NCBI GenBank assembly: GCA_032718475.1 | Contig: JAUCBJ010008837.1 | Span: 1 to 64,000, forward strand | Source: Nemertoderma westbladi | Lineage: Eukaryota; Animalia; Xenacoelomorpha | Reading direction: 5' to 3' | Length of the DNA: 64,000 nucleotides | Part shown: piece by piece, positions 870 through 40,450 of the stretch | Layout of the letters: the number at the start of each line of letters is the position of its first letter | Numbering within the stretch: position 1 is the stretch's first letter | Program-made: the position numbers and the translations under genes | The notes under the pieces: model-generated | Database searches by the model: none | Told to the model about the DNA's origin: nothing | What the model saw: the letters and a program-made list of their open reading frames with translations, nothing else

Positions 870-2865
870 TAGACTCAGCCAAATCCAGACAGCCCGTCTC
901 CTTGGACATCCATTTGGTTGCTCTGACTAAATGTCGGCTTGCTTTCATTTTTATTATTGACAGATTGTTAACTTACCAGGAGCTGAGTCGGGCATTGCAG
1001 TTGTTGTGACGGGATCGGAGATCCCGACCGGGTTAGAAATGTACGCGTCACCGTTCTGCTGGGCAGTCGTGCTAGTCGTTTTGGCCGAAGGCCGTTGGGG
1101 AAAACAATACGAGTTTTGTTGTTTCTCAGTATTGATTAACATAGATGATAATAGCACGTACACATGAATATAGCAGAAAAACACAGATTAATTGCTGTTA
1201 ATGGCGGTGACGGTCATTAATTATGACCGGTCTGCACTGACTGAATAACTCAACTGACCGGTAAATCAGTAATGTAGGATAATATATGGTTAACACACAT
1301 TGAATATTGATTTCACCTCTTACTGTACTTTGGCCCTCTGTACCCAATGGATGCTTTCCTGTCCCTAACCACGTGCTCCCCTCCCCACTATTGGCTAATA
1401 TACTAATTGTCGCTTTGGCACTCCCTGTGAGTGTTTCCCCTCGCTGCTAGCCTCTACTAGCTGTATTCCCTCTGAGGTGGTTTGACCTCTCACCTTTCTC
1501 TGTGGCTTTGGGGCTTGTGTCGCCCCCCCCCCCCCCCCCCCAATGTTGGTTATGATACGAGATTAATATTGGTAATCTCTATCCCCAACATATTGCTAAA
1601 ATGCCACTATCCCATTTTCTGGTGGAATGAAGTGGAATTGAATCCGCTTACAGTTGTAGTAGAGACCATCCACTGAGGCATTGATACAGCACAGGGCTAA
1701 TACGTAATAAGGGAGTTAGTTGGATGCGGCTTTGTTAAAAGGAGGAACTGTATGTATAATAATCGGATTTTGTGTGTTATTATTAGATAATCACATATTA
1801 GAGTCATTATGAAATGGCAACGTTCTGTATGAAAGCGTCCTAATTATAGTTGGCCTTCTATAGGTAGTAGCTGAGTCTGTTACAGGGCAAGAGGCAGCTA
1901 TTAAATAGCAACACTGTCTCGAACGAGTTCGGTATACTGATGTAATTCACATTAGGTGGCGCGGCCTATTTCTACTGTAGTAGGTGGGGTCTAAATTCGA
2001 GGGCGATAGTGTTCGCTAACGCCGCAAAGATACGCATTTATTTTTCTTTGTTTTTGAATATGATCATGTTTATGTACTATTCCGTCTTTATTTCCACGCA
2101 CGTTTATTTGCTAAATATCTCTTTCGTATTTATCCCAGTATCACTTTCATTGATCTTTCATTTGTTCTATAATTGTTTACACTACTTTCGTATTACTTTG
2201 TTTCCGTTATTTCACATATTTTACCTTTACATAATCACTTTACATACTTACCCTGACCCGTGCTTGTTCCATCTCCCAGAAAGTAATTTTGTAAGTAATT
2301 CAAATAGTCCTTAATTAACAAACATTATAGTGATATTTTTTGATTTGAAAGCTGTCATTGATAAAACTTCAGTCTAGATTTGTTTCTTTTTGGAATATTT
2401 TACACCTTTGTACTATACCTTTCATTCTTGCTGGTCTAAATGTTCGAACCTTTATTTAATTCTCGGCCAATTTAATAAATAATAGCGTAGGTATCATCCT
2501 TTGACCCTGAGACGCTTGACGACGTCCGGCAGTCTTGTGGATTTCATAAGTAGGCTGCCCGTGATCCTCTTACAAGGCTCTCGGCGGGCTAGCTGACCAT
2601 TATACAGTATATTAGTATCTCATCAATCATTTCTCAGTAGGCTGCCTGTGATCCCCTAACAAGGCTCTCGGCGGCTTGGCTGACCATATCACACATCAAA
2701 TTAATATTTCATTTGGGCGAGAGTCAGATATTGGTTCGTGTACATTTCTGACAGCGAAGATCACCCCCTCTCTATCCATCCACATTGTAACTTAATTAAT
2801 ACATCACTGCTCTAACCAATCAAAATAGAGATTCACTTCACACCTTTTCCAATGATAAACACAAT

Positions 2866-4043
2866 TGTTCGCGCTTTTAGACCTTTAGCAGTTTAACCTG
2901 CCAAATTTAGGTGTCTTCTAGGTTATAAATCGACTTTAGCCTATAACAAGTATTTGATACACATAAAACTACATTAGCCGAAGCCAGCCTATGCGCGATC
3001 ATTCACCCACGGTTAAGGGAGACTGGATTCGGATGCTCTGACCTTATTGCGGTGTAGGCCTACTGTATTATTCGATTGATCGTTAATATATAATCTCTGA
3101 GAAATATTATTCACTTTCGGGAAATATTAACAGTTCCTTTAGGACGTGGCGCTCTAAGTATGTAAACAGAGTTATGACTTACACTAAACACAACGGGATG
3201 GCTTATGATTTACGTATAAGGCGCATTCTTTAGGAAATGCTTTGTTATCTATCACACTCATGCACACTACCGCACACTGCTGCACACTGATCTGCCGACC
3301 TTCACTAATTTTGATCATATATAAGGAGAACAGCAACTGACACATGTAGGGTCTATGAAATAGCATTCAATTCACTCCAAAACCACTATAATGTAAGTCG
3401 CAATTGCTATATGTAACCGGTCTCACTAACCTTCAGTATATCAAGAAGATTGGGGTTTTCTGATTATTTATCGATATTCTCCAAATATAACAACATTCCA
3501 TTAACTGATAACAATTAATAACCGACAGTAAATAGCAGTAAAATAATGCGGTGAAAGGTATGTATAGTATGGTATGGGCTGACAATATGAGCAGTTTGAT
3601 AACAGTTATACGTTTCTATGATCAAAGCCGTTCTAATGTTTGGCTAAAGTCTGAAACACAGAATAATTCCACAGCCGATGTTCTGGGCTCAGGAAAAAAG
3701 GTAAACAAAGACCATAATGCATTGCGCGATTTCCCGGAGGCTTCTGTGCAAATAAAATGAAAATCGCTCTGATTGGTCGAGCCAAACAAAGAACAAAGAA
3801 AGCTCTACGAGGACATATCAGCTGATAGATGTCGTCATCTGAACTACACTGTATCAAGAGTATTTTGGCGTATTGCAGCATAAAATCGCTAGTTATGTCC
3901 GCTAAAGTACACATACAGAAAAATGGCTTTTTATGTCCACTAAAACACCTACACAGTAAGAAAACGGCTTTTTATGTCCACTAAAACACCTACAGAGTAC
4001 TTTGCGGGAAAAATGACTAGCTAGATCCGCAAAAGCCTTTACA
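2866..4043 (-). repeat. 3' LTR of the BEL/Pao element
   Basis: TGTTCGCG...CCTTTACA, a direct repeat of 51147-52316. The adjacent purine-rich tract (minus strand CTGGGAGCGG) is PPT-like. Confidence 0.92.
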
Positions 4044-4121: not shown

Positions 4122-5672
4122 TTAGTCTTTCTTGCGCGGACGGCGTTTACGCAGTTTTTTGAGGCTAGCAAGAGTCCTTTTCTCTTTGGGGCGAGCCACT
4201 TTACTAGGAGGGCTATAACTCCTGGGTGAAAGGGTGCAATACAATTGCATCGGAAGGTTTAGGATTACGGTCGGTGTATCCGCCGGTCGAGGTACCTGGT
4301 TGATCGATATCAACCTCAGTGGAACGAGGTCGAACAACCTTGAGAGCGCATTTTAAGACAGCAGCTCTTACTGGTCCCTGGCGGCTCGTTTGCACGAAAG
4401 CGGTAGGTGGACTGTGTGTAGTGAAAAATTTCCTCGGTTTGATGATTCTTTTCAACTCGCATTCTCAGACTCTATCGGAATCGATATGCTTCTCCTCGAG
4501 CTGATTTTCCTCCGCTTGTTGTTGGAAGCATTCGGCTAAAACTCTTTTAGAGTAGAGTCGTCCAAGTTCGATATCTTCTTAGAGATTCTGGATTTCCTGA
4601 TCGAACTGAGATAAAGCTAATTCGTTTACCGCTTGGACTTGCTGCTGCAATTTACGTTTCTCTAAACAATTGCAGGTTCCTTTTCCGATCTTTTGACGAA
4701 TAGTGTCCAATTCGTTTCGTACAACTCTCTCCTCCGCCTCGGTGACAGGTTGTATCGGGTTAAACCGGGACGATGATACGGTTTAATGGCGATATTAGAT
4801 GTCCGCGTCCCAATCCGACTAGGTAAGATGGGAGAATATTTAGGGAGCCCACAACCGGAGTGCCACCGACTAATTGTTCGGGTAACACTAGATCTTTGAA
4901 CAGTGAGTACAGTTCGGGAGGATCCGTGATACTATTAGGATCAAGAATCTGAGGTCTAACGAGGGAATGAGGAGGTCTGACCGAGTATTCCGGAACTCTG
5001 ATCATAGGTTTATTTAAGGATCGTTTGAATCGAGCGAGCGTAGGTGATACATCGAACAAGTTTCGCTCGAAACTCCCGTAAATATAGCGAGTAAAACTGT
5101 GTTTAAAGCAATGTCTCCGTGGATGTTTATGTCTTTCCGTTTGTTGGTTGGGTCTTGGGCATTCATCGCAATAATACCAAAGACGCATGTCTTGTAGGGG
5201 AAACGCTGGTGATATTTATTCGGTTTTACAATGTTTCTCTCAAGAATTCCAAATATACGTTGGAGTTACCGCGTTTATCCGGTTCTTTAACATCTTCTCT
5301 TTCGAGTCGATTTCGAATAGAATTTTCGCATTCGATTTTCAGTTTATCGTTCCGACTCCGCTGGGTATGATATTTAAATAAAACCATTTCCCTTTCGGTG
5401 TCTATATCGTCCGTATCGTGTAAATCGATAGGATGGCCAGTAGTTAAGAAGTCCATATACGTACCATTACGATGCGTGTAGCGAGCGGTGAATTTTCTAT
5501 AGTCCAATTCACGCGTGAGTTGCTCCTGGGACATTGGCGGTTCGATATAACGACCATCGTCCTCCGTAGTAGTTGGACTAGCATCGCCGCGTATTAAGCT
5601 ATCAACAAACGCTTGCAACGGTAGAGTATATCGCTCCCTGATACCAAGATCATCTTCTATCAACTCAGTCAT
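4122..5672 (-). pseudogene. Degenerate accessory ORF between BEL pol and the 3' LTR (Cys/His cluster, coiled-coil segment, basic C-terminus)
   Basis: Consecutive minus-strand ORFs 5226-5672, 4760-5188, 4213-4455 and 4122-4337, with protein-like sequence continuing through the stops (CDEC...H..H.C..H; EERVVRNELDTIRQK). Confidence 0.5.
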
Positions 5673-5777
5673 AGCTGCTATATGAGTTTATCAATATTAT
5701 AATGAGTTTATAATTAGGCTAGCGGGCGTCGCTGCCTACCCCTCACGGCCCCCGGACAGTGCAAGATCCTCAGCGCT

Positions 5778-5869
5778 GATGTACTGTCGCCGCTGTGCCT
5801 ATCGCCAACATAGTAGCTGCACAGATGTACTGTCGCCGCTGTGCCTATCGCCAACATAGTAGCTGCACA
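5778..5869. repeat. 46-bp tandem duplication
   Basis: GATGTACTGTCGCCGCTGTGCCTATCGCCAACATAGTAGCTGCACA occurs twice. Confidence 0.9.
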
Positions 5870-7426
5870 ACGACAATAACAACCAGCGCGAGTCAGTCCA
5901 CTGTCCGTCCCAAGGGCTTAGATTTACTTCAGGTTCTTACTGCAGAGTTAGGGCTACTTTCACAATTGCGACTCGCTACTGTAAACACACTTTAGTAGTA
6001 ACATTCACCTATAAACGCACAAATTCCACACAACTGTAACAAACCGCACACATTCGGGCCATTTGTCCATTAGTCAAGTGCCTTCCAGAATGCCACGTTA
6101 TTATTGGGTATCCTTGGATACTAGCAGTGTGCTATTTATTCCTTATGCTATTCAATGGGGCAAGCTTTATTGTTCTTTTAACTCACTTCTAATTCTAGCG
6201 TGGTTGTTGCCATGGTGACATTATGGAAAGCTAGCAGTAGAATTAGGGTAATTCTCATGCATACAGATCTGGGATGCTATTTAATAGTAGTTCTTTAATT
6301 GTCAATATTCCTCTTTATACATGATTTTATGAATTTTATCGGCTATTGACTATATATTGGAGATTCTCGCACCTTAATACACTTAATAGGGTGAATCTCC
6401 GCTCCCATGATCTATTAATTAATGGAATTTTGGGAATGTTATAAATTGCATAAAATGACAATTTATCAAATTCATTAAAAGAGATGAATTTAAATTTATT
6501 CCCGTAAATTTTATTATTTAATATTAAAAATATACACAATTTTATTCCAGAACATGTCTGGGGACTGGGATCCTTGATTCTAGGAAATTTGTCTTTTTAA
6601 GAGTATCGGTAAGTGCTATGATATCTTAATATACTAGAATTTTAAAGGATCTAAAATTTTACAGATTTTAATTTATAGATTTTCTAGAGTTAACTTGTAT
6701 GTAGTTACTCTATTGTATTTATTTGACAGATTTTACAAATATTAATAGTTAATATTTAAGATGGGCACCGGTTTATTCCAGAACATGTCTGGGGACGTTA
6801 ACCATTGATTCTAGAATTTTGTCTTTCAAGTATATCGGTGGGTGCTGCGATATCTTAATCGACTAGAATTACAGATGGTCAAAGGGTTTAACAGATTTAT
6901 TTTGCGTTTTACGCTACTGTTAAAGGGACATCACGCTACTATATGTATTATTTAATATGCGGTATGAGAGCAATATCGCAAGAAGCAATGTCAGTGAGAA
7001 GAGGCAAGTCGTTTCCAAGGTCTACCCAGAGCTTGGTTTAGCCGAGACACGAGGATCTGAACTTTGCATTCCTAATACTCTACTTACCAATAATACTTAA
7101 ATATAGTAGGAGCTTTATTGTACTTTAATAAGTACGGACATTTCATCTTACTGTAGTCACGTATTTATAATATGATACGAACAGTAAGGAAAGAGAATAA
7201 TAATTATTTCTCGCCGTCGCACTAAATATATAATATATAAGTAATTAAGTAATAAACGCGAATATATATGTGGCACTAATCTACTAAATAATCGCTAAAA
7301 TAACATTCTAATAAATAAAAGTTAAAGAAAACGATTATAATAAAATTACATAATAATACATACATAAGTATAAAATAATAAAAGCAAATATAAAATAATA
7401 TAGTCACACACCCACTCCAGACGCTG

Positions 7427-10400: not shown

Positions 10401-12352
10401 ATCCCAAAAGCCTGGATGGTCATCCAGTACTCCACCGGTTTCTGGTTGAGGTCTCCTTCAGGCCAGCACAGAAATCGTAGGCTGTCTCGATCTCTATCCA
10501 GCGCCTTAACTTGTAAGAACATGCCTTCTATATCAGAGGCGAAAGCGATTGATTATTGTCGTAATCTTAAGAGTATTCCCAACAAGGATTGTAGTAAGTT
10601 GGGTCCTGGCAACAACTCGGAGTTAAGGGATTGGCCCATGTAGAGGGCGGAGCCGTCAAATACTACCCGGACTTCGTTGGGTTTACCGGGTTTGGGAACG
10701 TAATGGTGTGTTAAATAGTACGTTCTCTCAGTTATGGGTGTTCCTTCCGGTACTCGCTCCACATATCCCTTGTCAATGAATTTCTTCAGCTGGGTCTTGT
10801 ACATCTCCTTAGCTGAAGCATTTGCCGTAAGGCGTCGATGTAGCTGCGCAATTCTCTTCTCCGCCAAGGGTAGGTTGTTTATAAAATTGAGTTCTCGCCG
10901 TCGGAAGGGCAGACCAATCTCATATCTACCTTGATCTTTAAGAAAACGTGTAGTCGTTTCTTGTATCTGCTTGGCTCTTTCTTCTTCTACCGATAGGGCC
11001 TTATCGTAGGAATTGGGCTCTACAGCCTCTTGAGTAAAGAATCGTACGGCGTGTTCATCACGAGTCTTCGCGTTGTAGCGATCTATCACTTCATTCAGTT
11101 CGTCGTTGTAGTCGACTTGTCCTGCTGGATGAATGAGGTGACATAGGTTCACTTGGTTTTGCCAAGTTTTGTTTTCTGTAAGGAGGTCGATGGTATTCTC
11201 CTCATCGAAGAGTTGGTGGATATCGTCATTATCTGACGAGTATGGTATTCCCTCAGTTGTGTCGTCTACCTCACTGATCTCCTCTTCCCATTCACTTACC
11301 TGGTAGACCCGTTCTTTGGGTAACCTTTCCATGAGAGTTCTACGGGAAGGGCCAGTAAAGTACCAACCTACTCTAGTTCTTCCCGCATAGGTTTGTAGTG
11401 GTTGCGGTTGAGCAGGCCGTTTCTCCAATGTCTCAAGCGCCTCATGCGCATTTTGGCCGATGAGTATTTGCACTCCAGGGTAGTCTGTGTTGAATCTAGG
11501 TATCTTATGCTGCTGGGTGAAGTCGTCCTCATCCCAGTTATAAGGTTCCACTTGGCTGGTAGCGAAGTTCTTTATCGCCACCATTTTTACTGACCTTATA
11601 CTGTGTTCTCCTAGTTCATCCTGGGGGGTGGACAACGCGCCTACATAGTAATCTGTAGTTACTGTAGATTTCCAAACCTGCATAATTCCTGACATGTTCA
11701 ACTTAGTTCGGAACTTGGGTTGTCCAGCAAAGATGTCTTCGGCTAGTTCTTTGTCGATGAATGTTCCTGTGCTGCTGGAGTCAAGGAGGGCGTTCACTAT
11801 ATAGCTCTTTTTTGGCCCGTGGACTCTCAACTGCACTACGGGAAATTCTCGGATTCCTACGTTGGAAGTTGGTGCTTTCCAAGATGGTTGTCGGTCAGGA
11901 GTAGTTAGGGGGAGCTCACTGTCGGTTTCTTTCTCATACGTAAGTGCTCGATACACTGCGGTATTTATTAGGTAACAAGATTCGTTTTTGTCGGAGAATT
12001 CATCCGTATAGAATCCTTCCATCTCAGAACTTTGGTCAGTGTCGTTCACATCACTGAATTGGACATGTAGTTCGGACTCACTTACCTGACTCGGGCGGTT
12101 TCTTTCGAATTCAGTGTGCAACAAGATATGATGTTTCGCGCCGAACTTTGCACACCTTGTGTCGGAATAACAGGTTCGCCGTTGGTGTCCTTGTCTGAGG
12201 CAATTATAACACAACCGCTTATCCCACATGACTTCACGTCTATCTTTTAGTGATTTCTTTAAAAATTTATCACATACACTTAAATGGTGGGGCCCGTCGC
12301 ACAGCGCACATTTTGGTTTGATGTTACTCACCTTACCTTGGGTAACGTTGTG
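7427..12352 (-). pseudogene. BEL/Pao polyprotein, 3' part: zinc knuckles, aspartic protease, RT, RNase H, integrase, DUF5641-like tail; stops and frameshifts
   Basis: CALCDGPHHLSVC / CYNCLRQGHQRRTC / CAKFGAKHHILLH knuckles; ALLDSSS protease; YMDD; LHMFGDAS; TGVDLFGP, SDKGTNF and PWWGGSWERL integrase motifs. Confidence 0.93.
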
Positions 12353-13357
12353 AGTAGTAGGGTCTTGGTCCTCTCTGTGACACTTGGACCTCACTGACAC
12401 CCATTGGGTGTCATATGACACCCAATTATCACCCATAGGGTGTCATTGGCGCCAGACTGTCTGGGTGACACCTCCCAATTAGGCTAATTAGATCCTAATT
12501 GACAGGTGTCATCAATTAATTAGTACAATTAAACCCTAATAGGTGTCTTACGACTCCTAATTAGGGTTTAATTGATTATCCTAATTAATCAGACTGATTA
12601 GCGCCCTGACACACAATGGGTCATCAGTGTTGTCCAAGTGTCACAGAGCCGGAGCAAGAGGGTGTCATAAGTGACACCGCAGCTCTTTTATTTATTAATA
12701 CTTATTTATTTGTACTTTATTTTAAATTAATTAATTGTATTTATTTTTACTTTATTTATTTGTACTTAATTTTAGATTTACCAATAATTAGTTTTATATA
12801 TTGGTTTCTAAATGACCTCATTGACTTTCATCTCGTTATCCTTAGCCATAGGGTATACAGCTCCCTTACTGGTAACTAATTACTCTTATCTATTTCCAGA
12901 CAGCTTTTTCGTTGACCTTTGACCCCCAATTAGCTTTAACCAAGCAACAACCAATTAATAATAGTTGTATCCAAGCGCCCCGCCCTCTATTGTGACACCT
13001 CTGATTACTAATTACTCTTACCTATATCCAGCCGTCTGCAGTTCCATAGTCTGCCGCTAGAGGGCGTATTATTTGAAAATTATCATCTTCTCTAGCTTTG
13101 TTATTTACAATCCGCAAAACTATGAAGTTATATTGCTTAAGAGTTCTAAGGGGCGAGCCATGAGGCAAGATGTTTGAGGCTTATTTATTTATATTTAATT
13201 TTAATTAATTATTTGTATTCTATTTTACTTTATTTATTCATTTGTACTTTATTTTAAATTAAATATTTGTATTACTTTTACTTTATACATTGATTTCTAT
13301 TTTTAGATTAATTAGTTTTTATATTACCAATGAGATCACTATGACATAATGTCTATA
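12353..13357 (+). repeat. Left terminal inverted repeat (~1 kb) of the reduced element
   Basis: Reverse complement of ~26171-27204; the inner boundary is approximate. Confidence 0.9.
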
Positions 13358-13859
13358 ATTAACTTTATAATGGCTATGGTATACGGCTCCCTACTGGCAA
13401 CTATCAACTACGTTCATCGGCGGGGGGCCCCTCCTCTATCCGCATTATTCATTAACTAGATACAACAGGCAGTGAATCTACACGTATACCCCCAAGGCAA
13501 ATATAAATGAGCAGTCCCGTCTGTTAGCAGCCCCTTCGATGACTCACTAATAATCCCATCGCGGCCTTGACTACACCAAATCCGTATATCGCTCAAGGCT
13601 AATGCTCTAGCGGCCCTCCTTTGTTCTCATTATAGCATCACTCGGGTCCTTTCCTATATCCAGGCAGCCGATATCATAACAATGAAGCGCCTCTAAACAT
13701 GCATTCCTCTCTACTAATCCCTTTCCTTTGCACCAGACCTGCTTCTGTTATACAGTCAACTCAACATAATTAGTCAAGTTGCCTACAGGAGTTTTCTAAT
13801 ATAGATTCATCAACACGAGAAGTTGCCCTGGTAACCGCTTATGCATGAACACACAATTA

Positions 13860-15400
13860 GCGAACCATCCGATTGGTGCTGCGCTCTGATTGGCTCATTT
13901 AAGAGACAAGGGCCTCCCTTAATAACCGAATTGCTATTTAATACATCCCCACCAATATATTAGGTCATTATTTCAATTGCAAGTTACGATTAACATCATT
14001 TACCATTATTTTGTTTTCGAATTTAATATTATTTATTAAGAATATTTATTTGTTATCATCAGTCAACAACCCACTTGTATTATTGTCATTTCGCCGCGTT
14101 ATCGTTCATCGTCGACAACAAACTTTCCGCGTATCCGACTTACAACCGCGTAATATTCCAATATTTCTAATATCCGATACCATTCCGTTCTATCGGTAAA
14201 TAAACTCTCTCGTCGTCCACGTCAACCAACTTCCTCATCGCCACCGAACTTCCAAACTTCATCTTTCCGTGAATATTAACTGACACCGTAAGTAAAATCT
14301 GCCTTCCATCTAGCTATACTTTCGACGCCGCTAGCAAACAATTTACCTTTAATGTCTACCGGTACAACAGTATTGCAGTAGGCTCATTATTAATTACTGT
14401 CAGACTGCGGTGGTACCGATAGCATAAACCGTGATCGGGCATTCAATCAATAGGTCTACATCTGTCTATCTGCTTATAGTATTTTTTCTTTTTACAAATA
14501 ATCATCTTATTTTTCTAGTATCATTTCGCCGCGTTATCGCTTATTGTCGACAACAAACTTTCCGCGTATCCGACGCGTAATATTCCAATATTTCTAATTT
14601 CCGATACCATTCCGTTCTATCGACTAATAAACTCTCTCGTCGTCCACGGCAACCAACTTCCTCACGAACTTCCAAACTTCATCTTTCCGTGAATATTAAC
14701 TGCCACCGTAAGTAAAATCTGCCTTCCACCATCTGACGATACTATCGATGCCGGTAGCAAACAATTTACCTTTAATGTCTACCGGTACAACAGTATTGCA
14801 GTAGGCTCATTATTAATTACTGTCAGACTGCGGTGGTACCGATAGCCTAAACCGTGATCGAAGCATTCGATCAATAGGCCTACATCTGCCTATCTGCTTG
14901 TCTACCTGACTACCGATACCGATCTGCCGATAGCCTAGGGCCATTGTAGTAGCGCTATAGACCCTACTGAACAACAATGAATACTGTAGTTTTCACTATA
15001 TATCCTACTGACTAACTGAGATCTCACACAGCGATTAGCTAGGCCTATCGTTGATTTGTATTGGTTAGCGCTGACTTCTGGCGGACTATATCAAGCACTA
15101 CTGCACTAACTAACTGACTGTTGTTTATAGACCCTCTTTCCACGAATAATAACTGCCATCGCTATTGTGTCTTGGTTATCGCCACTATCTAACCGCTGGT
15201 ACACTAACACTTCCACACTAGACACTACCGACTGTCTGCATTATGTTTCACTGACTGATTGCTACAATACAGCAATAGGCCTAACTATATGAACACAGTA
15301 TTGTTGCCTAGTAACCGATTAATACCTACTGTTTTACTTTATTTTTAGCAAGTATACAGTATTTTTTATCTTTTTACAAATAATCAATGTATTTTTCTAG
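13860..15400 (+). promoter_or_regulatory. Putative Pol II promoter and spliced non-coding leader of pPolB, including a ~435-bp tandem duplication
   Basis: Two ATTGG (CCAAT) boxes at ~13870-13895. GTAAGT donors at 14288 and 14708. TTTTCTAG acceptors end at 14518 and 15400, the latter 7 nt before the ATG at 15408. Duplicated units start at 14086 and 14521. Confidence 0.5.
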
Positions 15401-15407
15401 ATTCAAG

Positions 15408-18400
15408 ATGCCAAGATCAACAAATAAAGTCAGCTGCCCCCATCTGCGACAAAGAGACGCGGAGTGATAATTTATCTCGTCATATTAAAACTCATTTCGT
15501 GCAATATAGATGCGACTGCTGCTCGACTTGGTCCTCGGAAAAGAAGACACTGGTTGGCCATCTGGTATCGTGTCCTCAGGGGGGAACAGGATTTACTTAC
15601 GTAAATGAGCCATCCGATTGCCGCTGCGGGGATTCGCTCACCCTATCATCCTTCACTGAGCATGAATGCTACACTCGACTTTTTTCGCGGAAACGCAAAA
15701 CTCCGGCTACCTCCCACTCATCCCCCATCAACTCTACTCCAGAACAAGTCGGCGGCTGCGGCTCCAATAATGAACCTTCAACTTCGCGAGATTCTATTTC
15801 CCCAAACAATCCCTTTCAACCCCCCTCTATTGGAAGTGCACACGGACGACTGTTTACTTATAACAATGACCTCGCAGAAACAAGACTCGACGCTGAACTA
15901 ACTTTAAATGAAAATTTTCCACATATTCAAGAACACGTTAGTAGCCATTTACATAGTGCTTTGGGAACTTTTTTAAGAGTCTGGCTTACAATCAATATCG
16001 TAATGGAGCGTGAAACTAGCGAGGGTTTCCAAATTGAATCCTTCTGTTTTAAATCTAGCGGTAACAATAATCAAATTCTAAATAATAGCGACTTTAATAA
16101 CTGGTTTTCTAGCGCCGTCAATCGTATCGATCAACTGTTAAGCGTGTTTCTCTGTCTCGGCTCGGGTTGGCGCATAATAGCCATCGAGCGAATAACTATT
16201 GAGATTGCGCGTTCCCAACGCAACCCCTATTTAAAGGGTCAAGGCTTCAATAATTCTAAATTATTATTAAATAAAAAATGTACCGTAAGCGTAGACTGCC
16301 CGCTGGGGGAATGCTTTAAATATGCAGTATTAGCCGCCGCAAATTATAATAAAATTGATAGAAAACAAAATAATATCATAAGAATTTCAACGTATACTCG
16401 TTTCCTAAACATGTTTGATTTTTCCAATTTAAGTTTTCCGGTGGACAGAGTAACTGGTATTCCCCAGTTTCTGAAAGCCAACCCTATATACTGTATAAAT
16501 CTTCTTTATTGGAGTAATACGGAAGAACTCTCCATTCTAAGTCAACCAGATAGCGCGCACTGTTCCGGTAAAACTGTACTAAATTTATTATTTATCGAAG
16601 CCACAAGCAAAAACCCCGCCCACTATGTAGCTATTACTGACATAGATAGACTAATAAATTCAAAAGATTCTAACGGTAACAAGACGCACTGCGAACGCTG
16701 TCTCAGAGGCTTTTACACTGACAAATCATTGGAAGAACATCGAGAGCGGTGCTATATGGGTAAACGCCAACTCGAGTATATGCCCGAAAATCTCTTGGTT
16801 AGGTACGATAAGACTCTATCCCCACCTTTCTGTATATACGCCGACATTGAAACTATTCTAGAACCTACAAACAATATTAAACTCCCACAGAAACATATAG
16901 CTAGCGCGGCAGCCTTTTATACAGTACCAAATCAGAAATTAATTAACCCTCCTAAAACAGATGTTCAAATTTTCCGCGACGATGGCAGTAACCACGTAAT
17001 GCGCGACTTTCTAACCGCTATGGAAAGTCATTGTAGGGAGTTATACGATTGGTCCATTTCTAGTACAAACACGCACGCCCCCATGCAACTCACTACTAGC
17101 CAACAAACTGACTTTAATAACGCTACACAATGCTACGTCTGCAACCGTAATTTAACCCCCGATTCTCATAATTTAAACCTCAATGACAATCTCAGCACCA
17201 AAGTCCGCGATCACGATCATTATAGCGGGGAGTATCGAGGGGCTTCTTGCGTCAGCTGCAACAGGAAACTTTCCCTAAAACGGAATAATTTTTATATTAT
17301 ATTTCATAACTTGAGGAAATTCGATATGCATTTACTACTAAAAGAAGGAATGACCGATAGTTCTAGAACACACTGGAAAATGACTGTAATGCCAAAAAAC
17401 ACTGAAACTTATATTCACCTTAAAGTTAGCTTTCCAATCGATCCGAGTACACCAACAGCCAACGCTAAAGAAAGTATCTCCATTAATTTTCTAGATTCCT
17501 ATCAATTTATGACTGCCAGCCTAGATAATCTTAGTAGTTATCTCACTAAAAATAACAGTAACCTTGCAACGGCCATACCCCCCCCATACACTAGCTCAAA
17601 TGACCCAACTCTATCCCAACATTAGCGATAACACAATAAAAAACAAGGGCGTATTCCCATATTCCTACATTCAAAATATTTCAAACCTACACGAAACTAC
17701 ACTCCCCCCAATAGAAAGCTTCTATAATGATCTCAAATTGGAACAATGTAGCGCAGACAACTATCAGCGCGCGCTTACTACTTGGGATGAATTAAACTGC
17801 GCAACAATCTTCGACTATATGATTGGCTATTTGGTTCTAGACGTTACCCTATTGGCTGATACTTTCGAGCAGTTCCGATCCCTCTTTCTTACTAATTATG
17901 GACTCGAGCCCGTAATGTACTTCACTGCCCCGGGATTAACTTACGACGCGGCGCTGAAATTCACGCAATCAGAAATTCAATTACTATCAGACGCTTCCAT
18001 CTACTCGGACTTTGAAACAAATATTAGGGGTGGTCTAGTTTTCTTGAATACACATTCTGTAGACGCAAATATTCCCGATAAACCCAACTACGACTCCAGT
18101 CTCCCCGAGAAATATCTAATTCCCATCGATGCGAATAACCTTTACGGCTGCGCCCTGAGCCAGAAACTTCCCTACACTAATATTAAACTCGTAACTACCC
18201 CCATAGACCTAGCTACAGTAGACGCGAGTGGGGACACTGGTTATTATTGCATAGTTGATCTACATTACCCGAAAGAAATTCACGATTTGACCGCCAATCT
18301 GCCTCTAGGAGCGGAGAAGATGTCAGTCCCTAAATCCTTTCTTAGCGAATACATGGAAGATCTTTGGGAGCATTACAATCTCACCGATACGGCTACCTGT

Positions 18401-19456
18401 AGACCATACAACGATACCTGTACTAAGCTACTACTACATCAGTTTAATAAGGTTGAATACGGTATCCATATTAAGCTACTTCAACTCTATTTGAAGCTCG
18501 GTCTTAAACTTACACAAGTACATAGGGTCTACTCTTTCTCACAAAAATATATTTTCAAGGACTACATTAGTTTTAATACGAATAAAAGACAGTCGGCAAA
18601 TAACCCATTCGAGGTCCTATTTTATAAGTTGATGAACAATGCCCTGTATGGGAAATGCCTCCAAAAGGTTAGAGACCGCGTTTCTTTCAGGTTATGCAAT
18701 AGCGACGAACAATGCGATTTGCTCTTAGCCAAGCCCAACCACGAATCGTTTGTTGTCTTTACCCCCAACTTGAGTGGACATACTTTCACTAAAGAGGCTG
18801 TTTGCCTAAATCAGGGCGTGTTCATCGGTTGCACTATACTAGATCTATCTAAGCTACAGATGTACGACCTATTTTACTACAAACTGAAGCCTCTAGAACA
18901 AAAACTGGATTGCCAGATTCGCTGTCTAGCCGGTGACACGGATTCTCTAATGCTAAGCGTAACTAATGCACCACAGCTAACCTTTCTACGGGCAATGTTT
19001 GAGGGTGGTTTCCTAGATACTTCCAACTACAGTACAACACATCCACTCTATACCATTAAACACAAAGCGGCTCTCGGCTTCATAAAAGATGAGAGCTGCG
19101 GTTTGCAGTATAAACATTGGGTTTTCCTTAAACCAAAGGTCTATAGTTTTCAATCCTACGATGCCCCAATCAAGAAAACCGCCAAAGGTGTATCTAGATC
19201 GGTTGTCGATAAGCAACTAACACACGAGGATTATGCAGACTGTTTTGAAAACGAAGCAATGCTCTTCCGCTATAACTCTACCTTCACTTCTAGAAAGCAT
19301 CAAATTTTTACTGGTCATGTCTATAAGAAGGCACTAACGCTCTGGGATACGAAATCATATTGGAGTAGTAAATATAGCAGCAAACCATACGGGCACTATA
19401 GCACTAAGCTTGTTAGACCGGCGAAACGAGTAGTAATCCCCCCTACTAGGATTTAA
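15408..19456 (+). CDS. Protein-primed family B DNA polymerase (pPolB) with N-terminal C2H2 finger and endonuclease VII-like insert; two frameshifts in C runs
   Basis: MPRSTNKVSCP-ICDKETRSDNLSRHIKTH; GSGW; YADIE; DHDHYSGEYRGASCVSCN; HNLRKFD; FLDSYQF; KGVFPY; DANNLYG; KLMNNALYGK; GDTDS; PKVY; AKGV. Frameshifts near 15440 and 17580. Confidence 0.92.
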
Positions 19457-19470
19457 TTTAATTTTTCTAG

Positions 19471-19986
19471 AATAAGAAATTGAGCAACAAAATAGAAATA
19501 ACCAATAAACAGTTTACCGGAAAAAACATTGCCAAATTTGAACTAGAGAAAATTTCATAGCAAATTACAGGTCAAAGTTGCTTAAAACCAAACATGTTTA
19601 TCTACAAAGGTGACGATTCAACTATAATGCTATTTCCCAGCGGCGCAGTAACAATTGTAGGCCTGTGCAATAATTTAGCTAGTGAATTGCTTTATTTAAA
19701 ACAAACTATCGGTATGCAATTACAAAATTTGAAACTTAATACCGAAACGCGAACTATTATTTTTCCAAGTGTTAATTTTAAATTATTAATGAAAAAATGT
19801 GGACATCATACAATTAATAATAAAGCAATATTTATTAGCTATACCCCCGAATTATTTTGCGCGATTAGAATATATATAGGACGTGCATATTTCAGTGTAT
19901 TTCATAGTAATAAAATCGTTTCCATGTGTCCTGCCGGTGAATTCCCCGGATCATTATCTATTTTACAAACTTTATTATTAAATTAG
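19471..19986 (+). pseudogene. TBP-like (TATA-binding protein fold) gene with an in-frame TAG at 19558
   Basis: IMLFPSGAVTIVG and SYTPELF...FSVFHSNKIV resemble the two TBP repeats. KPNMFIYK matches KPNQFIYK of the homologue at 43279-43790. It follows a TTTTCTAG acceptor at 19470. Confidence 0.65.
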
Positions 19987-22190
19987 TTTATTTACTATGG
20001 TATACATGAAAGTTTACTATATTATTTATTTTGTGTTGGTTTTTATTTTTCCATGAGTAGGGTTTGAATCCGTGATCATCCGTGTTACCTACTTTTTATA
20101 ATTGCATTAGTAGGACTCGAACCCTGGTTTAACTTATTTTGTGTTGGTTTTATATTGGTCGCGAGTAGGGATTGAACCCGTGACCTTCTGTTTATTTTCC
20201 ATAAAACGGGATATGAATAGGGATCGAACCTGTGAGCATATGTTTTTCCTATTTTACCTCTTCTTCTCCATCTTTCTCACTCAAATTTTCCCCATTTTCT
20301 AGGGGTAACTGTTTTTGTATCCCTTTCAAAATATTCATAACTTTATGAAATTTATTTTCCATTGTCTGTTTTATATTTAATATATCACGCTCATCTCTCT
20401 TTTTCTTTTCATATTCACTAAAAATATCTTCGGATTTTTTAAATTTTTTGGTAACGGAGCCAATAGTTTTTCCTTTCTATGTGTTTCCATCTGACGAGAT
20501 AAATTGTCTTGTCTCATTTCTTTATTACAAACCAAAAAACTTTCATGTCTATGCATTATATAGCAATGTCAATTGATAATATTGAATTTTCACATTATAT
20601 TTATGTTAAATTATAAATTTATGCTACAATTATTATTTTTATTATAAAAAACAGAAATATTCGAGTTATATTGCATTATATAATTTGCATTGAAGTGGAA
20701 TACTTTAGATGTTGGGGGAATCTGGTTTGCGAGGGATATTTGAATGGTGAGTATAACTATCCTTGAGAGCTAGTGCAACGCTATCTCACTATGGATGGGC
20801 TTTACCACTGTACTCGCATCTGCTCTCTCATTGGCTGTTCGATGCCTCCGATTAAGGGTCTAAGGCCTTCAAGCTGGTCATTTGCTTAGTTCTCTAATTG
20901 GAGGGATGTGAGTTTGGACCCTAGAAGTGCATTATTCTTTTTCCTAGCTCTTGGTTAACTCTAGCATACACTCTAGCTTTGACTCTCCCGGCTATAGTGA
21001 TAGTATGCAACCTTGGGAGTTAATGTGAGTACATATTTCAGTGTATTTCATAGCAATAAAATCGTTTCCATGTGTCCTGCCGGTGAATTCCCCGGATCAT
21101 TATCTATTTTACAAACTTTATTATTAAATTAGTTTATTTACTATGGTATACATGAAAGTTTACTATATTATTTATTTTGTGTTGGTTTTTATTTTTCCGT
21201 GAGTAGGGTTTGAATCCGTGACCATCCCTGTTACCTACTTTTTATAATTGCATTAGTAGGATTCGAATCTTGGTTTAACTTATTTTGTGTTGGATTTATA
21301 ATGGTCGCGAGTAGGGATTGAACCCGTGACCTTCTGTTTATTTTCCATAAAACGGATATGAATAGGGATTGAGCCCGTGACCATATGTTTTTCCTATTTT
21401 GTGTTTAGTTTAGTTATTCTAGTTATTCTATGTTTACTTTTTATATTTTCATGACTAGGATTCGAACCCTGGTTTAACTTATTTTGTGTTAAATTATAAA
21501 TTTATGCTACAATTATTATTTATATTATAAAAAACATGTTTATTTTCCATAAAACGGGATACGAGTAGGGATTGAGCCCGTGACCTTCTGTTTTTCCTAT
21601 TTTGTGTTTAGTTTAGGTACTCTAGTTATTCTATGTTTAACTTATTTTGTGTTGGTTTTATATTGGTCGCGAGTAGGGATTGAACCCGTGATCATCTGTT
21701 TATCCTATTTCGTGTTTAGTTTAGTTACTCTATGTTAAAGTGAATTTTCACATTATATTTATGTTAAATTATAAATTTATGCTACAATTATTATTTTTAT
21801 TATAAAAAACAGAAATATTCGAGTTATATTGCATTATATATTTTGCATTGAAGTGGAATACTTTAGATGTTGGGGGAATCTGGTTTGCGAGGGATATTTG
21901 AATGGTGAGTATAACTATCCTTGAGAGCTAGTGCAACGCTATCTCACTATGGATGGGCTTTACCACTGTACTCGCATCTGCTCTCTCATTGGCTGTTCGA
22001 TGTCTCCGATTAAGGGTCTAAGGCCTTCAAGCTGACCATTTGCTTAGTTTTCTAATTAGAAGGTCGTGAGTTTGCACCCTAGAAGAGCATTATTCTTTTT
22101 CCTAGCTCTTGGTTAACTCTAGCATACATTCTAGCTTTGACTCTCCCAGCTATAGTGAGAGTATGCAACCTTGGGAGTTAATGTGAGTAA
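19886..22190. repeat. ~1.15-kb tandem duplication containing an array of ~11 B-box-like motifs on the minus strand
   Basis: 19886-21030 is repeated with rearrangement from 21031. The motif reads GGTTCRAnYCC on the minus strand. Confidence 0.8.
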
Positions 22191-24104
22191 AGGCCAAGAG
22201 ATTAGACTTCTGGTTGCCTCTATTGGTTCATTCTTCTTAACTTTATAAAATAACTCAACCCGTATCTAAAGTTTTAAAAATTATGACTTAGTCGACTAAT
22301 TTTCCAAAGTATATTATAAAAACATATAATTTCTTGAATAAATAGACCTAATAGTAATAAATAATGTGGGGGTAAATACATTTATAATTCTAATATAATT
22401 ATTAAGGATAAATAGTCCTAATACTAATATAATTATGTAATAGTAAGCAAAATTTTTATGCGCAACCATCACAGATTATTTGGATATAAAAGATCACACA
22501 GCCGGAGGCTAACTTGCTGGGATCGACAAAGGCTTTGTGTGCGGTGTGCCGCTATGTCTTATATCGGGTGGATGAGAGAGCCCCCCTAAGCGTAACATTG
22601 CGAACATGGGCTATATTGCTAGAGAGAGAACTACATATAAGACCACATGGAGGTTCATGGAGTGGATGGGCTACGTGAATGGAGGAGCCTAGACCATTGA
22701 ATAATTAATTTAGTGCAGGAAGATGTCACGCCATTAGTCTGACACCGAGAGGGCACAGAGAAACACCAGAAGATGCCTTAACATCACTAACTATGGGCCT
22801 ACTAGACACTATTAACCGCACACTATAAAGGTAAACAAAATCCTTATCGCATTTTCAGCTATAATGAGCGACAGTTCGCGGCAAACTATAGAGAGTTTCC
22901 AGATTACTAAACGTTTCAAATTAACTGTCTCCTTGAATGGCTTACTAGCAATCATACTACTAAAAAATTCATTAGAGAGTGGGATTGAACTCGTTGTATA
23001 GTAAAAAAGTAAAACGAGTGAAATACTATATGTATAATTACAGGACGGCTGGGTGCAACCTTCGTTCACCTACAACCTCCCCCCAGGTGCAATCTTTGTT
23101 CGCGAAAATTTTCAGGAATTTTGAATTTTGCAGTCGCATGGAGTGATAACCCTTAGGTGAAAGCTAAATTTGCTCTACTTTAATCAAATGGGGCATTAAA
23201 GCTACGAGTATATTTTCCTTTACATACTCCCTCGATCTTACACAAATCTGGGTAAAAGGCGGTTGAAGGGCTATCATTCGCAACATATGCGGTCCCCCCT
23301 TTAATGTTTCATTGTTCAATTCATAGTCGCCTTTAAGAATTTCTCAGGAAAATAAGGACGATCACTTTCAACCCATGCGGCCCTCCCTTTCATGATTTCA
23401 TTGAACTATCCATAGTATGAACAATCAAACCAAAGCCTTTGAATATAGGACTAAATATCCTCGCGGCTTATCAGCGGCGCCATGGCTAACGGCTTAATAT
23501 CAATAGTGAAGCATCTAAAAGAATAGAAGAGTAATAGAAGAATAATAGGGCAGAACAGCGTACTTACAGCTTAGAGGTGGGCGCGCTGAAAACTTTGCTC
23601 GCCATCAATACATACAAAGCATCGCTTGATGGAAAGAGTAATAGCGTGGATATTTTCATTTTGGTGAATATAATTTATAGCATTAATCACGAAAATCGCT
23701 AAATAATATATTTTAACTAAAGTCAACTCTGATAAACAACTTGCATAACGAGTTTGTAAAGAATTCATAGGGATTGGCTGTTTATTTAGGGATTAACATT
23801 CAAAATGATTATGAACGAGCAATAGGGTCATTAGTGGTATGCTGAGACTCACTTATTTCATGGCTCGCTCTCATAGTATAGATTAACTAATAGAGAAAAT
23901 GAAAAATAAGTGGTTAAACATCCTATATTTTTAAACATTATGGGGAAACAAGAATAAATAATTTACCGACAACATCAATATTAAATAATATAACAACAAC
24001 GGATAAATAATTTACCAACAACATTAATAATAAATAATATAAGAACATCAACAATAACAAAAGATATAGTCAGAACAGTTTTTAATAAATAGAGACTGTT
24101 TATA

Positions 24105-25817
24105 TTAATAGGGTTGCTGGTCTCCGAGAATAAGGTTTGGTTTAACCCTTTTAGGGTCCGATACTATTAATGGCTGCGATAATTTTCTCTTTAATAGTTT
24201 GTTGAGATAACCTTTTCTTGGGGGGTGAAATAGATTAAGGTGTGTTTGCTGCGGGAGAAAGATGCCTTCTCTGAGAGAACGTTTTAGTAATTCGAAAAGG
24301 CGCGCGATGGTAAAGTTGTTGGATAGGGTGATAGTGTTGGTATTTTTCGTATTGGTGAATATAATTTCTGCTGGTTTGTTCTCGATATGGATGTAAGGAC
24401 TGAGGTAGTAGTGAGAGTTGGGTGGGTTGGTTGTATTTATCGTGAGAAAAGCGCTGCCCCTAATATTGAGACCGTTGGTGAACTAAAAAGTGGTATTCTC
24501 TTCGTCTTTCATTAAAATGGGCCAGATACCGACATATTTTTCGGATTTGAACTTATAGATAAAGGCTGCGATACTGCTATTTATGAGATAGCGTTGGTGA
24601 TTGGGAATCGTAATCTGCTTTGGTTTGAAAGCAAATTGTATAGCCATAGCCTTGAATCTGATTAGAGCCTCGCGCGCTTGAATCGTGTTAGCTATAGTAA
24701 AGGATTCGTTAAATTTTCTCTCGGTTATCTGTAAATCAATTTCTGAATCACTGATACAACTTTGTATCGATATTCGCTCGGAAATGTTGTCTTTGTAGAT
24801 GTTAAGTTCATCGTAGCAGACACATTCACTATCCTCGATAGTTGAATCGAACCATTTCAAATCGCCTACCTCGGTTGGTGTAAGAAGAATCATGCCCCTA
24901 GAAGAAACAATAGCCTTTCCATTGTCAACCTCGTAGCCATTGGTGATCGCTAAATTGCGCTCGTTCCAAATATTTGTAACAAACCCAAAAGTGCAATAGT
25001 CAAAAGCAACCCAATTACCCGGTTTTAGGACAAGGTGAGTAGTAGGATTAATAAAAGGGCGACATATGTTTACATATTGTTGAAATAAATTGGCGCAGGC
25101 AACGGAAAATGTGATCCATGAACTGTTTACAGTGTCTTCCAGCTTTATTAACTCGAGTGGATTCACTGGGTTAATACTTCCATAGGTGCCAACTCTATAA
25201 TTGAATCCAAAGTAATAGGAGACTTTATTGGCGAAAAAGCATGTGAGCTCATTCAATTTCTCGCCGAAAGCGAGAACATCCTTGTCGAAAAGTTTAAAGA
25301 AACGAGTCTCCTCTTCCTCGGTCGGAGTCGACGAGTTCCAGATGAGAAGAAGAATCGAGTTTGCGATACTATGAAAATCGAATAAGCGATCATCGGAGAA
25401 GAAGGAGGTTACGAGAGTGGTTAAACCCAGTAAACGATTTGCCACATCTTGGTTGATGTTTTCTCGAATAAAATCGACTATACTAGTTGGAATCGTAAAC
25501 GTCTCGGGCGAAGTAGTTAGATTGAACGTTATTTTGTTGGCCCTTTTTAAAAGTTTGAAACCGTGGTTGGAGGAATGAAGTTTATTATCGTCGAGGGTTT
25601 GATATTGTCCATCGTGAAGTTCGTAGCAGGCCCGGAAAATAAAGTGCGCGTAGTTTGCCGGAATCGGGATGGGTTGGTTTAAGGTTGTATTTATCGTTAA
25701 CGGGAAGAGTTTGTTCGCCGAATCGAAATATAGACCAAACGAGTTGTCTTGTAGCATAAACTGATTTTCGTTGCAAACCAGATCGTTGCTTGAATAGCTG
25801 ATTTCTGAATGTGCCAT
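24105..25817 (-). pseudogene. Multi-domain PC4-like (putative ssDNA-binding) protein, copy 1, premature TAG at 24483
   Basis: Nearly identical to the intact 563-aa ORF at 59147-60838, with a CAG>TAG change. The segment IYKFKSEKYVGIW...GLNI is PC4-like. Confidence 0.6.
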
Positions 25818-26170
25818 CGTGATTGTGTACCGGTAACTCGTTTAGGAAATAAAAATAAATAAATACTTTTACGAAAATAATTAAAACTTTTCAGGAAAAC
25901 AAAGAGACAATGATTGGGAATGTGGTGAACGGGGGCTATTATAGAGGGGGCTAGAATGGGTTAGCCAATCAGGGAACAGTAGGGAGAAAAGATTGTATAA
26001 TTAAACCAATCAGAGAGCAGCTTTGATGACGTCACATCAGGCGAGATAATGATTGCCCAATGTTATTCAATGGTAGCCAGAGTGGCGCCATTGAATAACG
26101 AAGGCAAAGGGGCCGCGAGAGGAAAGATTATAAAGTTAACGATAAGGGATCTATAAACCATAGAGCTAAA

Positions 26171-27204
26171 TATAGACATTATGTCATAATTACGTCATTG
26201 GTAATATAAAAACTAATTAATCTAAAAATAGAAATCAATGTATAAAGTAAAAGTAATACAATTAATTAATTTAAAATAAAGTACAAATGAATAAATAATT
26301 TAGAATTAAATACGAATAAAATAAAATGCAAATAATTAATTAAAATTAAATATAAATAAATAAGCCTCAAACATCTTGCCTCATGGCTCGCCCCTTAGAA
26401 CTCTTAAGCAATATAACTTCATAGTTTTGCGGATTGTAAATAACAAAGCTAGAGAAGATGATAATTTTCAAATAATACGCCCTCTAGTGGCAGACTATGG
26501 AACTGCAGACGACTGGATATAGGTAAGAGTAATTAGTAATCAGAGGTGTCACAATAGAGGGCGGGGCGCTTGGATACAACTATTATTAATTGGTTGTTGC
26601 TTGGTTAAAGCTAATTGGGGGTCAAAGGTCAACGAAAAAGCTGTCTGGAAATAGAGTAATAGAGTAATTAGTTACCAGTAAGGGAGCTGTATACCCTATG
26701 GCTAAGGATAACGAGATGAAAGTCAATGAGGTCATTTAGAAACCAATATATAAAACTAATTATTGGTAAATCTAAAATTAAGTACAAATAAATAAAGTAA
26801 AAATAAATACAATTAATTAATTTAAAATAAAGTACAAATAAATAAGTATTAATAAATAAAAGAGCTGCGGTGTCACTTATGACACCCTCTTGATCCGGCT
26901 CTGTGACACTTGGACAACACTGATGACCCATTGTGTGTCAGGGCGCTAATCAGTCTGATTAATTAGGATAATCAATTAAACCCTAATTAGGAGTCGTAAG
27001 ACACCTATTAGGGTTTAATTGTACTAATTAATTGATGACACCTGTCAATTAGGATCTAATTAGCCTAATTGGGAGGTGTCATCCAGACAGTCTGGCGCCA
27101 ATGACACCCAATGACACCCTATGGGTGATAATTGGGTGTCATATGACACCCAATGGGTGTCAGTGAGGTCCAAGTGTCACAGAGAGGACCAAGACCCTAC
27201 TACT
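26171..27204 (-). repeat. Right terminal inverted repeat of the reduced element
   Basis: Reverse complement of 12353-13357; ends CCCTACTACT. Confidence 0.9.
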
Positions 27205-31547: not shown

Positions 31548-32062
31548 AGTAGTAGGAGAAGCATAGTTCCTCCATATCTCCTCCCTATCTTGGGCTACGG
31601 CTCGCATCTCGGAGGCAATTAAAAAATGCCAAATTCCGGTGCTAAATCGCGGTGTTTAATGACCATCTGTCACCATCAATATTGATTCGCGTCGTTGCCT
31701 TCAACCAATCGTTGCTTATCACCTACGCGTAGCCTAACCTCGCGATGCCTACCTTACTCGACAACTGTTACCACCCGTGAGTATTGATTCGCGTCGTTGC
31801 ATCAACCAACCATCGCATATTCATCTTCGCGTAACCTAACTTCTCATCGCATGGCTAGCCCCCACTACGCTATTATATCGAATCGATTGCCAACTCACCA
31901 CCACCACCACCACCGTCGCTAGCCACGCACGGCTACTCTTCGACGGCTGTCGCCAAACCAATCAATCCAACCAACCAAGCGGCCTGCCTACCCCAACGCT
32001 ATTATGATACGTGTTGAAATTTCGCCACGTTCTAGCTACACGTATACGAATATTTCCATAGT
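31548..32062 (+). repeat. Polinton left TIR
   Basis: Reverse complement of 49753-50267; the internal direct repeat TATTGATTCGCGTCGTTGC occurs twice. Confidence 0.93.
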
Positions 32063-32477
32063 TATTTCCTATCCACGCAACCAACCACGGTCTACTGTAT
32101 ATGCTGACAACGTGGCCACCAACTACACGCATCACGCATATATTATATTATATTGATTGCCAACTCCACGACTGCTGTCGCCAAATCAACAAACCAAGCA
32201 GTATGATACATGAGATTCCGTCACGTTCTAGCTACGCGTATACGATCATTAGTGATTATTACGCAATAATTTTTTTGTTTATACAGTAGTTACCCACCAG
32301 CTAATCAACCAATCAATAAACCGAATTTAGGCTATTTCTCAGTTTAAGACCTGTATTATTTTTGAAAATATCTTATATATATAATCTCTTGCTTTAATCG
32401 CAATTAATCATTTGTAATGGTTTTAGTTTAAAAGTTTTTACTTTGTTTGTTTGATTTACAATAAAATAAATTAAATA

Positions 32478-32924: not shown

Positions 32925-33086
32925 CTTTTCCCTCTATATTATAAATATTTTATGATTATATATAAAATTTTGTTGTTTTTAAATAATCGAAAATTGTAGT
33001 AGTATTTGTATATACAGTATAACAGTTTTGTTTGTTGTTGTTGTGTATTGTGGTAATTATTTTCAATTTACTTTAAAATTTGGAAA

Positions 33087-33572: not shown

Positions 33573-33755
33573 CACCTTTTGCTGCAGCGAGCGTCACATA
33601 CTGTAGCGGCGCCGTATGTTAATTAAATATACAGTACTCTAATATTGTAGTTGCATCAATTATTGTTATATACATAGTAATGGTGTTGGTTTATTGATAT
33701 TGATATTGATATTATATTATATTGTATTGTTGATATATCTTAATAATAATAATAA

Positions 33756-34436: not shown

Positions 34437-34473
34437 TTAATATTTTGTAACAATTTTCAATAATGTTGCAACA

Positions 34474-38702: not shown

Positions 38703-38704
38703 TA

Positions 38705-39964: not shown

Positions 39965-39966
39965 GT

Positions 39967-40419: not shown

Positions 40420-40450
40420 TTAATTATTTAACTTTTGTTTATCAGATAAA

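Follow-up and report, generated by a model that had tools for sequence, protein, structure and literature searches.

A predicted self-folding end within the terminal repeat of a Polinton-derived element, whose arms are probably kept complementary by copying

Parvovirus and AAV genomes end in branched palindromic hairpins, with Rep/NS1 and flip/flop isomers, and non-autonomous Polintons are recorded in Repbase. For Polintons themselves, the standing model in the excerpted sections of two accounts combines protein priming with a single-stranded DNA (ssDNA) intermediate, in which the two TIRs pair to form a 'racket' (PMC4196379, PMC6431247). In adenovirus and PRD1, according to the corresponding sections of a further account, protein-primed strand displacement that frees one end first is established, and the panhandle is without direct evidence (PMC11886824). 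The ITRs of bidnaviruses, which are pPolB-bearing ssDNA viruses, are described in the accessible part of the source as forming no parvovirus-type hairpins (PMC4061559). In rRNA genes, multiple compensatory changes and in-place loop inversions have been attributed to template switching, as stated in the available text (PMC8794818).

We analysed a window of 64,000 nucleotides, the whole stretch of Nemertoderma westbladi DNA introduced above (GCA_032718475.1, contig JAUCBJ010008837.1). At 12353–27204, within a BEL/Pao retrotransposon, lies a Polinton-derived element of 14,852 bp (element A), flanked by the 6-bp TSD GTTGTG at 12347–12352 and 27205–27210 (both plus strand). Its left TIR (12353–13368, plus strand) measures around 1.02 kb and its right TIR occupies 26160–27204 (minus strand); both tips read AGTAGTAG, a short tandem tip as in Polinton/Maverick elements. 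Element A has the long TIRs, short tandem tip, 6-bp TSD and pPolB by which Polinton/Maverick elements are recognized. The pPolB (15349–19456, plus strand; PF03175, E 4e-14) is split across two frames and contains an EndoVII-like nuclease domain; the best relatives are 40–42% identical (42% for the best of 1051), and no close loci were found among viral contigs. A small TBP-like ORF (19561–19986, plus strand) matches Pfam TBP weakly (E 0.009), is 29% identical to a similar ORF in the neighbouring Polinton and has no sequence match in the PDB. Directly after it, at 20070–21686, come repeated units with B-box-like motifs, which we take to be those of tRNA genes. A loose B-box-like pattern on the minus strand has 10 of its 15 window matches within these 1.6 kb, related repeats occur in a second element (element B) at around 62000–62650, and the repeats at 20070–21686 are possible Pol III promoters.

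The remaining gene of element A is an orphan ORF (24105–25841, minus strand), broken by one stop and 27% identical over 104 aa to an ORF upstream of the neighbouring Polinton's pPolB. Sequence searches returned no homologues and no usable Atlas match, and the predicted model had a mean pLDDT of 31; a PC4-like resemblance judged by eye was not confirmed on checking. Because the ORF is without relatives or a usable model, it could conceivably have a highly divergent structural role. It is intact in element B (59123–60838), and the two versions differ by 17 synonymous and 15 non-synonymous changes in 555 codons, suggesting that the family was functional until recently. Among the element A ORFs scanned, none gave a Pfam match to the rve integrase or to a Tap/Tpg family, and none was recognizable as coding for a Rep/HUH protein or a helicase. 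A tblastn comparison in which 1120 ORFs of the neighbouring Polinton and of 110 related loci were run against element A revealed no remnants of integrase, ATPase, protease or capsid genes, and yielded, besides the pPolB and orphan matches, two weak matches only (E 0.007 and 0.009). Searches with DNA patterns brought up no relatives: they matched 0 stretches in metagenome contigs, and a 16-mer had 8 matches in viral contigs, none of which extended. We classify element A as Polinton-derived and non-autonomous rather than parvovirus-like.

The neighbouring Polinton (31548–50267; TSD CCTATT, 515-bp TIRs) is complete, with ATPase, integrase, protease and capsid-sized ORFs as well as the TBP-like ORF (43279–43614), and is a candidate helper for element A. 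Its pPolB, 32–42% identical to that of element A, also lies in two frames, split at another place. A 16-bp inverted repeat is present in its right TIR, 430 nt inside (49161–49322). Within a single LTR pair (2864–4043 and 51145–52316; 99% identical by substitutions, 12/1172; 5-bp TSD ACAAT) lie BEL/Pao ORFs as well as element A and the full Polinton, and the latter two appear to be young insertions nested in one retrotransposon. Element B enters the window with one end only, its far end lying beyond; this end (57902–61831, plus strand) is 90.6% identical, gaps included, to the right 4.1 kb of element A. The match stops at 61831, after which element B runs on with different sequence (61832–64000), including a 158-aa ORF at 63082–63558 with no convincing Pfam match. 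Because element B diverges from element A at this point, the family interior looks modular.

Ten nucleotides inside the 1-kb TIR of element A, the DNA is predicted to fold back on itself (12363–12678). The left outer arm (12363–12389, plus strand) contains an exact 17-nt arm at 12373–12389, the right outer arm (12632–12659, plus strand) its exact partner at 12632–12648. Between them, a conserved interior of 242 nt (12390–12631, plus strand) forms a long stem with branches at 12415–12446, 12464–12513 and 12515–12589 and is rich in TGACAC/GTGTCA and TAATT motifs. Just inside the fold-back is a small invariant hairpin of 7 bp with a TGACAC motif (12661–12678, plus strand), and TGACAC motifs occur in both orientations within the fold-back, beside it (12661–12678) and beyond it (12993). 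The tip (12353–12362, plus strand) is not palindromic, and at both ends its 10 nt take no part in the pairing of the DNA fold. The unpaired stretch coincides with the first 9 nt, AGTAGTAGG, which are the sole terminal sequence common to element A and the full Polinton tip. A sequence-only reading of this DNA had described two copies of the fold-back, with four arms whose positions and exact reverse complementarity were borne out, as were the inner palindromes, of which the TTAGGGTTTAATT arm carries one change in copy 2. That copy is the end of element B (57902–58237, plus strand), in which the exact arms extend to 22 nt (57917–57938 and 58191–58212). The window holds three copies rather than two: the right TIR of element A carries another at 26857–27204, with an outer stem at around 26888–27194 and exact arms at 26899–26915 and 27168–27184.

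Folded as ssDNA, 12353–12690 reached −104.8 kcal/mol (z −19.1), with 0/100 shuffles as good, and the element B end (57902–58250) reached −111.7 kcal/mol (z −20.1). The TIR of the full Polinton, in which no comparable fold had been seen by eye, indeed gave z −0.35, with 38/100 shuffles as good. When the window was divided into 213 non-overlapping 300-nt tiles, the top three folds were the three ends of the element A/B family, and the first 345 nt of element A contain 16 exact inverted repeats of at least 8 nt. The formation of a real branched structure in single-stranded DNA is supported by the covariation of the arms across more copies and by the placing of interior variants, both described below. 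The first 330 nt and their complement folded about equally well as DNA (−104.8 versus −102.8 kcal/mol). The RNA folds of the two strands were also strong (−168.4 and −175.9 kcal/mol; z −16 and −14), as a role in RNA would predict, in which a transcript of the TIR end would fold into a long hairpin that gives rise to small RNAs or serves as a decoy of host RNA sensors. In the top-strand RNA fold, unlike in the DNA fold, part of the tip is also paired. However, the fold-back matched no Rfam family (the best score was 22.9 bits, below the cut-off of 56), and there is no strand preference: the two strands fold alike, and one-sided variants create wobble pairs on the top strand in one case (12476) and on the bottom strand in another (12540). 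We consider an RNA role quite improbable.

Comparison of the three window copies revealed that the outer stem and the interior vary differently. Three substitutions had been said to separate the copies. This is accurate inside the 17-nt arms; outside them, there are five pairs broken in copy 2, two of which re-form in a shifted register, and a 10-nt indel. All three arm substitutions are mirrored in the partner arm, as had been noted, and the chance of such a match of place and base is around 5e-5; in a three-row shuffle control, which is weak, 16/500 shuffles reached three double changes. Over the three copies, the 122 pairs of the copy 1 fold comprise 113 invariant pairs, 3 with double-sided changes, 1 with a one-sided change and the 5 broken in copy 2, and all three copies retain the internal loops and branch points. 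Between elements A and B, divergence is 3/17 in each arm, 8/251 in the interior and 40/550 in the rest of the TIR, compared with 53/965 in the 3′ non-coding part and 24/1359 in the orphan ORF. The arms change faster than the interior (p 0.026) and the interior more slowly than the TIR remainder (p 0.024); for the arms versus the TIR remainder, the excess did not reach significance (p 0.12). CpG decay was ruled out as the source of the mirrored transitions (CpG o/e 0.98).

Variation among further copies came from contigs of four of seven public sequencing runs (X1–X4; 1772, 562, 855 and 16 contigs) aligned to 12330–12780. These runs represent at most three samples, X1 and X3 sharing one, and one sample is possibly the source of the window. 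The frequencies below are shares of contig depth, which is not copy number, and are mostly unphased; they come from the 40 variants listed of 97, none of these 40 falling in 12353–12382. At 12383, the share in X1/X2/X3 was 85/80/87%, against 89/95/93% at its partner 12638, and at 12386 it was 46/47/44%, against 50/63/45% at 12635. Two further right-arm sites were also variable, 12643 (67/93/70%) and 12646 (15/4/10%), with left partners (12378 and 12375) outside the variants listed. In X4, a contig of 368 nt (record 30, depth 30.5) aligned from 12484 with 74 loose letters, which agrees in length with a 74-letter loose end whose left arm is changed at 12375, 12378, 12383 and 12386. The X4 calls at 12635 and 12646 have a depth exactly equal to that of record 30, and those at 12638 and 12643 equal the sum of records 30 and 31. 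Read from these length and depth tables rather than from contig letters, record 30 appears to hold a third type of arm pair, which is exactly complementary and brings the mirrored pairs to four by adding 12375/12646. In the main X4 type the 12383 pair is changed and the 12386 pair is not, so these two changes were separate events. Records 28 and 30 of X4 represent divergent TIR subfamilies, with 38–39 differences over around 250–280 nt; in record 30, part of the left interior is apparently missing and the arms are still exactly paired.

The covariation for which the sequence-only reading had suggested testing additional copies was found in the arms but was confined to the outer 17-bp stem. Variants just inside it do not mirror one another (12391, 28/25/27%; 12630, 34/6/47% in X1/X2/X3), and common variants break pairs at 12392 and 12540. 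In the interior, among the variants listed, those reaching at least 5% in X1 affect 8/62 unpaired and 3/180 paired positions (Fisher p 0.001, or p 0.01 with a 3-nt loop change counted once). That loop, at 12435–12437, is either ATA or its reverse complement, the latter making up 86/65/86% of depth in X1/X2/X3. By these contrasts in rate and variants, the outer stem retains its base pairing while its sequence changes, whereas the interior retains both.

These observations bear on how the arms stay complementary. If selection alone maintained the structure as an origin, packaging or integrase signal, mirrored changes would arise one by one through mismatch or wobble intermediates, with no copying. 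Such a route, by way of a G-T wobble, is open to three of the four mirrored pairs, which are transitions, and the interior is conserved as such selection would predict. But the remaining pair exchanges C-G and G-C, for which no wobble intermediate exists, selected stems should evolve more slowly than neutral DNA, which these arms do not, and the inverted 3-nt loop requires a copying event; pure selection is thus an unlikely account. Arm-to-arm copying probably explains the mirrored changes better than slow two-step selection, given the arm rate (3/17, against 40/550 in the TIR remainder), the C-G/G-C swap and the 3-nt loop in both orientations. Of the selected branched structure originally proposed, the ssDNA structure is supported, and its mirrored arm changes are better attributed to copying. 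Homogenization of the arms by template switching, which had been named as the finding that would undo that proposal, is probably at work, with selection acting on the interior alongside. Either template switching or mismatch repair in a folded strand would entail that the arms pair in ssDNA.

Copying could also be the whole story. In the main rival explanation, the fold-back arose neutrally: the arms of an old inverted duplication at the TIR end would have been kept perfect by nothing more than template switching, and the interior would owe its conservation to protein binding or promoter activity of the double-stranded DNA, not to a structure. The near-neutral rate of arm change is as expected from this, as are the recurrence of TGACAC motifs both ways inside, beside and beyond the fold-back and the scarcity of such folds at most of the Polinton-like ends examined (below). 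It does not predict that interior variants should avoid paired sites (3/180, against 8/62 unpaired), that loops and branch points should be kept rather than erased in all three copies, or that the fold should end exactly at the start of the shared tip. We regard neutral self-copying with a conserved binding region as possible, though somewhat unlikely.

Two further readings of the fold-back are less likely. Contigs run into unlike flanks beginning at 12353 in 24, 18 and 17 cases (agreement 0.42–0.46; among the loose ends listed, 24 of 310), indicating many insertion sites for the family. The inverted arms have GGG on either side, as might be left by a separate MITE-like element inserted 10 nt inside the TIR and then carried along. 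Such an insertion should leave mixed flanks at the stem's own borders, but none was present there among the same loose ends listed (24 of 310), cover continues past 12660, and the same motif lies just outside the fold-back; its prospects are slim. Slimmer still are those of a parvovirus-type rolling-hairpin telomere, whose 3′ end would fold back, prime itself and be resolved by nicking. The sequence-only reading had likened the fold-back to parvovirus hairpins, and element A does share with parvovirus and AAV genomes a branched palindromic end, an EndoVII-like nuclease domain in the pPolB could be set beside it, and one small loop is found in two orientations. As a mechanism, however, the likeness fails: the palindrome is not at the extreme end, the terminal 10 nt being unpaired with no self-priming 3′ end; the ORFs scanned included no Rep/NS1 gene and, more broadly, none for a Rep/HUH protein or helicase; and the tip and 6-bp TSD are of the Polinton type. 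Nor was flip/flop seen. Among the 13 joints listed for the 1772, 562, 855 and 16 contigs, in which rare forms are dropped, none inverts the interior, and only the 3-nt loop is inverted.

We surveyed 110 loci with related pPolBs (80 of 527 from one set and all 30 of another) for comparable ends. A local exact inverted repeat of at least 13 nt was present in 22/110, mostly internally. Twelve control ends were folded with 12 shuffles each, and the counts are rough, since short-read contigs often lose TIRs and hairpins. Of the nine that had been selected for a TIR or tip motif, L013 had the strongest fold (z −6.1) and the other eight fell between −3.1 and +1.4; three ends picked for a fold at the contig end gave z −15.3 (L011), −17.7 (L061) and −3.6 (L037). 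The L011 contig, which belongs to a complete Polinton (pPolB, ATPase, protease, integrase-chromo and PC4), opens with a fold-back of 250 nt (3–251), the loop of which contains a minisatellite, and has no DNA similarity to the element A TIR. Neither the true tip nor the other end was visible, so this fold-back could be a MITE or an assembly artefact; a search found no relatives of L011. In L013, which opens on a GTAGTAG tip, hairpins of around 25–27 bp lie within 260 nt (134–260), and L061 has a nested fold-back at its end with no visible tip (5567–5906).

We propose that the fold-back is a likely working end structure of a putative ssDNA replication intermediate, its outer arms kept complementary by copying one from the other, a reading to which we give about even confidence. 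A pPolB together with the tip points to extrachromosomal, protein-primed replication of element A through an ssDNA form. The element's own pPolB would carry out this replication by protein-primed strand displacement, and folding of the displaced end, confined to its initial 330 nt, would occur well before release of the far TIR. Beside the resulting branched duplex, the AGTAGTAGGG tip (or its 3′ complement) would stay single-stranded, offering both the priming template and an interior rich in motifs as origin or protected end. If the folded end underwent template switching or mismatch repair, a change would become fixed in the two arms at the same time, and selection would maintain the interior. 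Integration would rely on an integrase supplied in trans that recognizes only the short shared tip, such that priming and the borrowed integrase would both depend on the tip, and the folded part would act as an origin or protect the end. The origin role is our inference from sequence. The fold is presumably not needed for such replication in general, because most Polinton-like ends are without one. It would act beside rather than instead of end-to-end pairing, because the duplex formed end to end by the TIRs is far more stable than two local folds (−435 versus −219 kcal/mol) and rare variants are common to both TIRs of element A, whose outer 860 nt differ by just 4 substitutions. The idea that these two ends escape homogenization was dropped (16 substitutions in 1016 nt, compared with 12/1172 for the surrounding LTRs; p 0.26).

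Arms that mirror mutations would amount to a record, written in sequence, of folded single-stranded ends in vivo, and the multi-copy family offers many natural variants with which folded ends can be tested. The arms would offer a handle on a replication step that has so far only been proposed. Two further implications are that a Polinton derivative may be reduced to replication functions and spread with no integrase of its own, and that the sequence an integrase is likely to read shrinks to around 9 nt. More tentatively, element A may represent a Polinton satellite lineage that is replication-only (a pPolB and two accessory genes) and borrows integrase, and perhaps capsids, from full Polintons through the 9-nt tip; its self-folded, self-correcting ssDNA ends would then be telomere-like origins, a eukaryotic counterpart of those of Streptomyces, that recur in unrelated Polintons.

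Fold-backs inside Polinton TIRs were not found in the titles and abstract openings of the literature covered; the original Polinton papers, Repbase entries and supplements may hold such. The word 'hairpin' is absent from the accessible portions of the nematode Polinton preprint and of the adintovirus paper, in which a figure legend labels TBP-like genes. The excerpted Polinton/Maverick accounts (PMC4196379, PMC6431247) describe the same 6-bp TSD, ~1-kb TIR, short tandem tip and pPolB as in element A, which differs in having no detected integrase, ATPase, protease or capsid ORF. Whereas the racket model in those excerpts pairs the two TIRs, each TIR of element A also folds on itself over 300 nt. 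Ca_PLV1, in the available text, is similarly integrated without a detectable integrase and presumably helped in trans (PMC11296320); it is among the capsid-encoding PLVs, whereas element A keeps a pPolB and two accessory genes, shows no capsid ORF and has structured ends. The combination of multiple compensatory stem changes with an in-place loop inversion resembles the template switching reported in the accessible part of the rRNA gene study (PMC8794818), although here it affects the DNA end of a mobile element and is polymorphic among copies. The closest working analogy, with no homology found or expected, is that of Streptomyces telomeres, in which, as far as the source extract goes, packed palindromes in the last 170–330 nt and predicted ssDNA folds accompany a terminal-protein-primed end (PMC5449611). 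There, the first 13 nt are palindromic and Tap/Tpg prime; in element A, the tip is free and the pPolB would prime.
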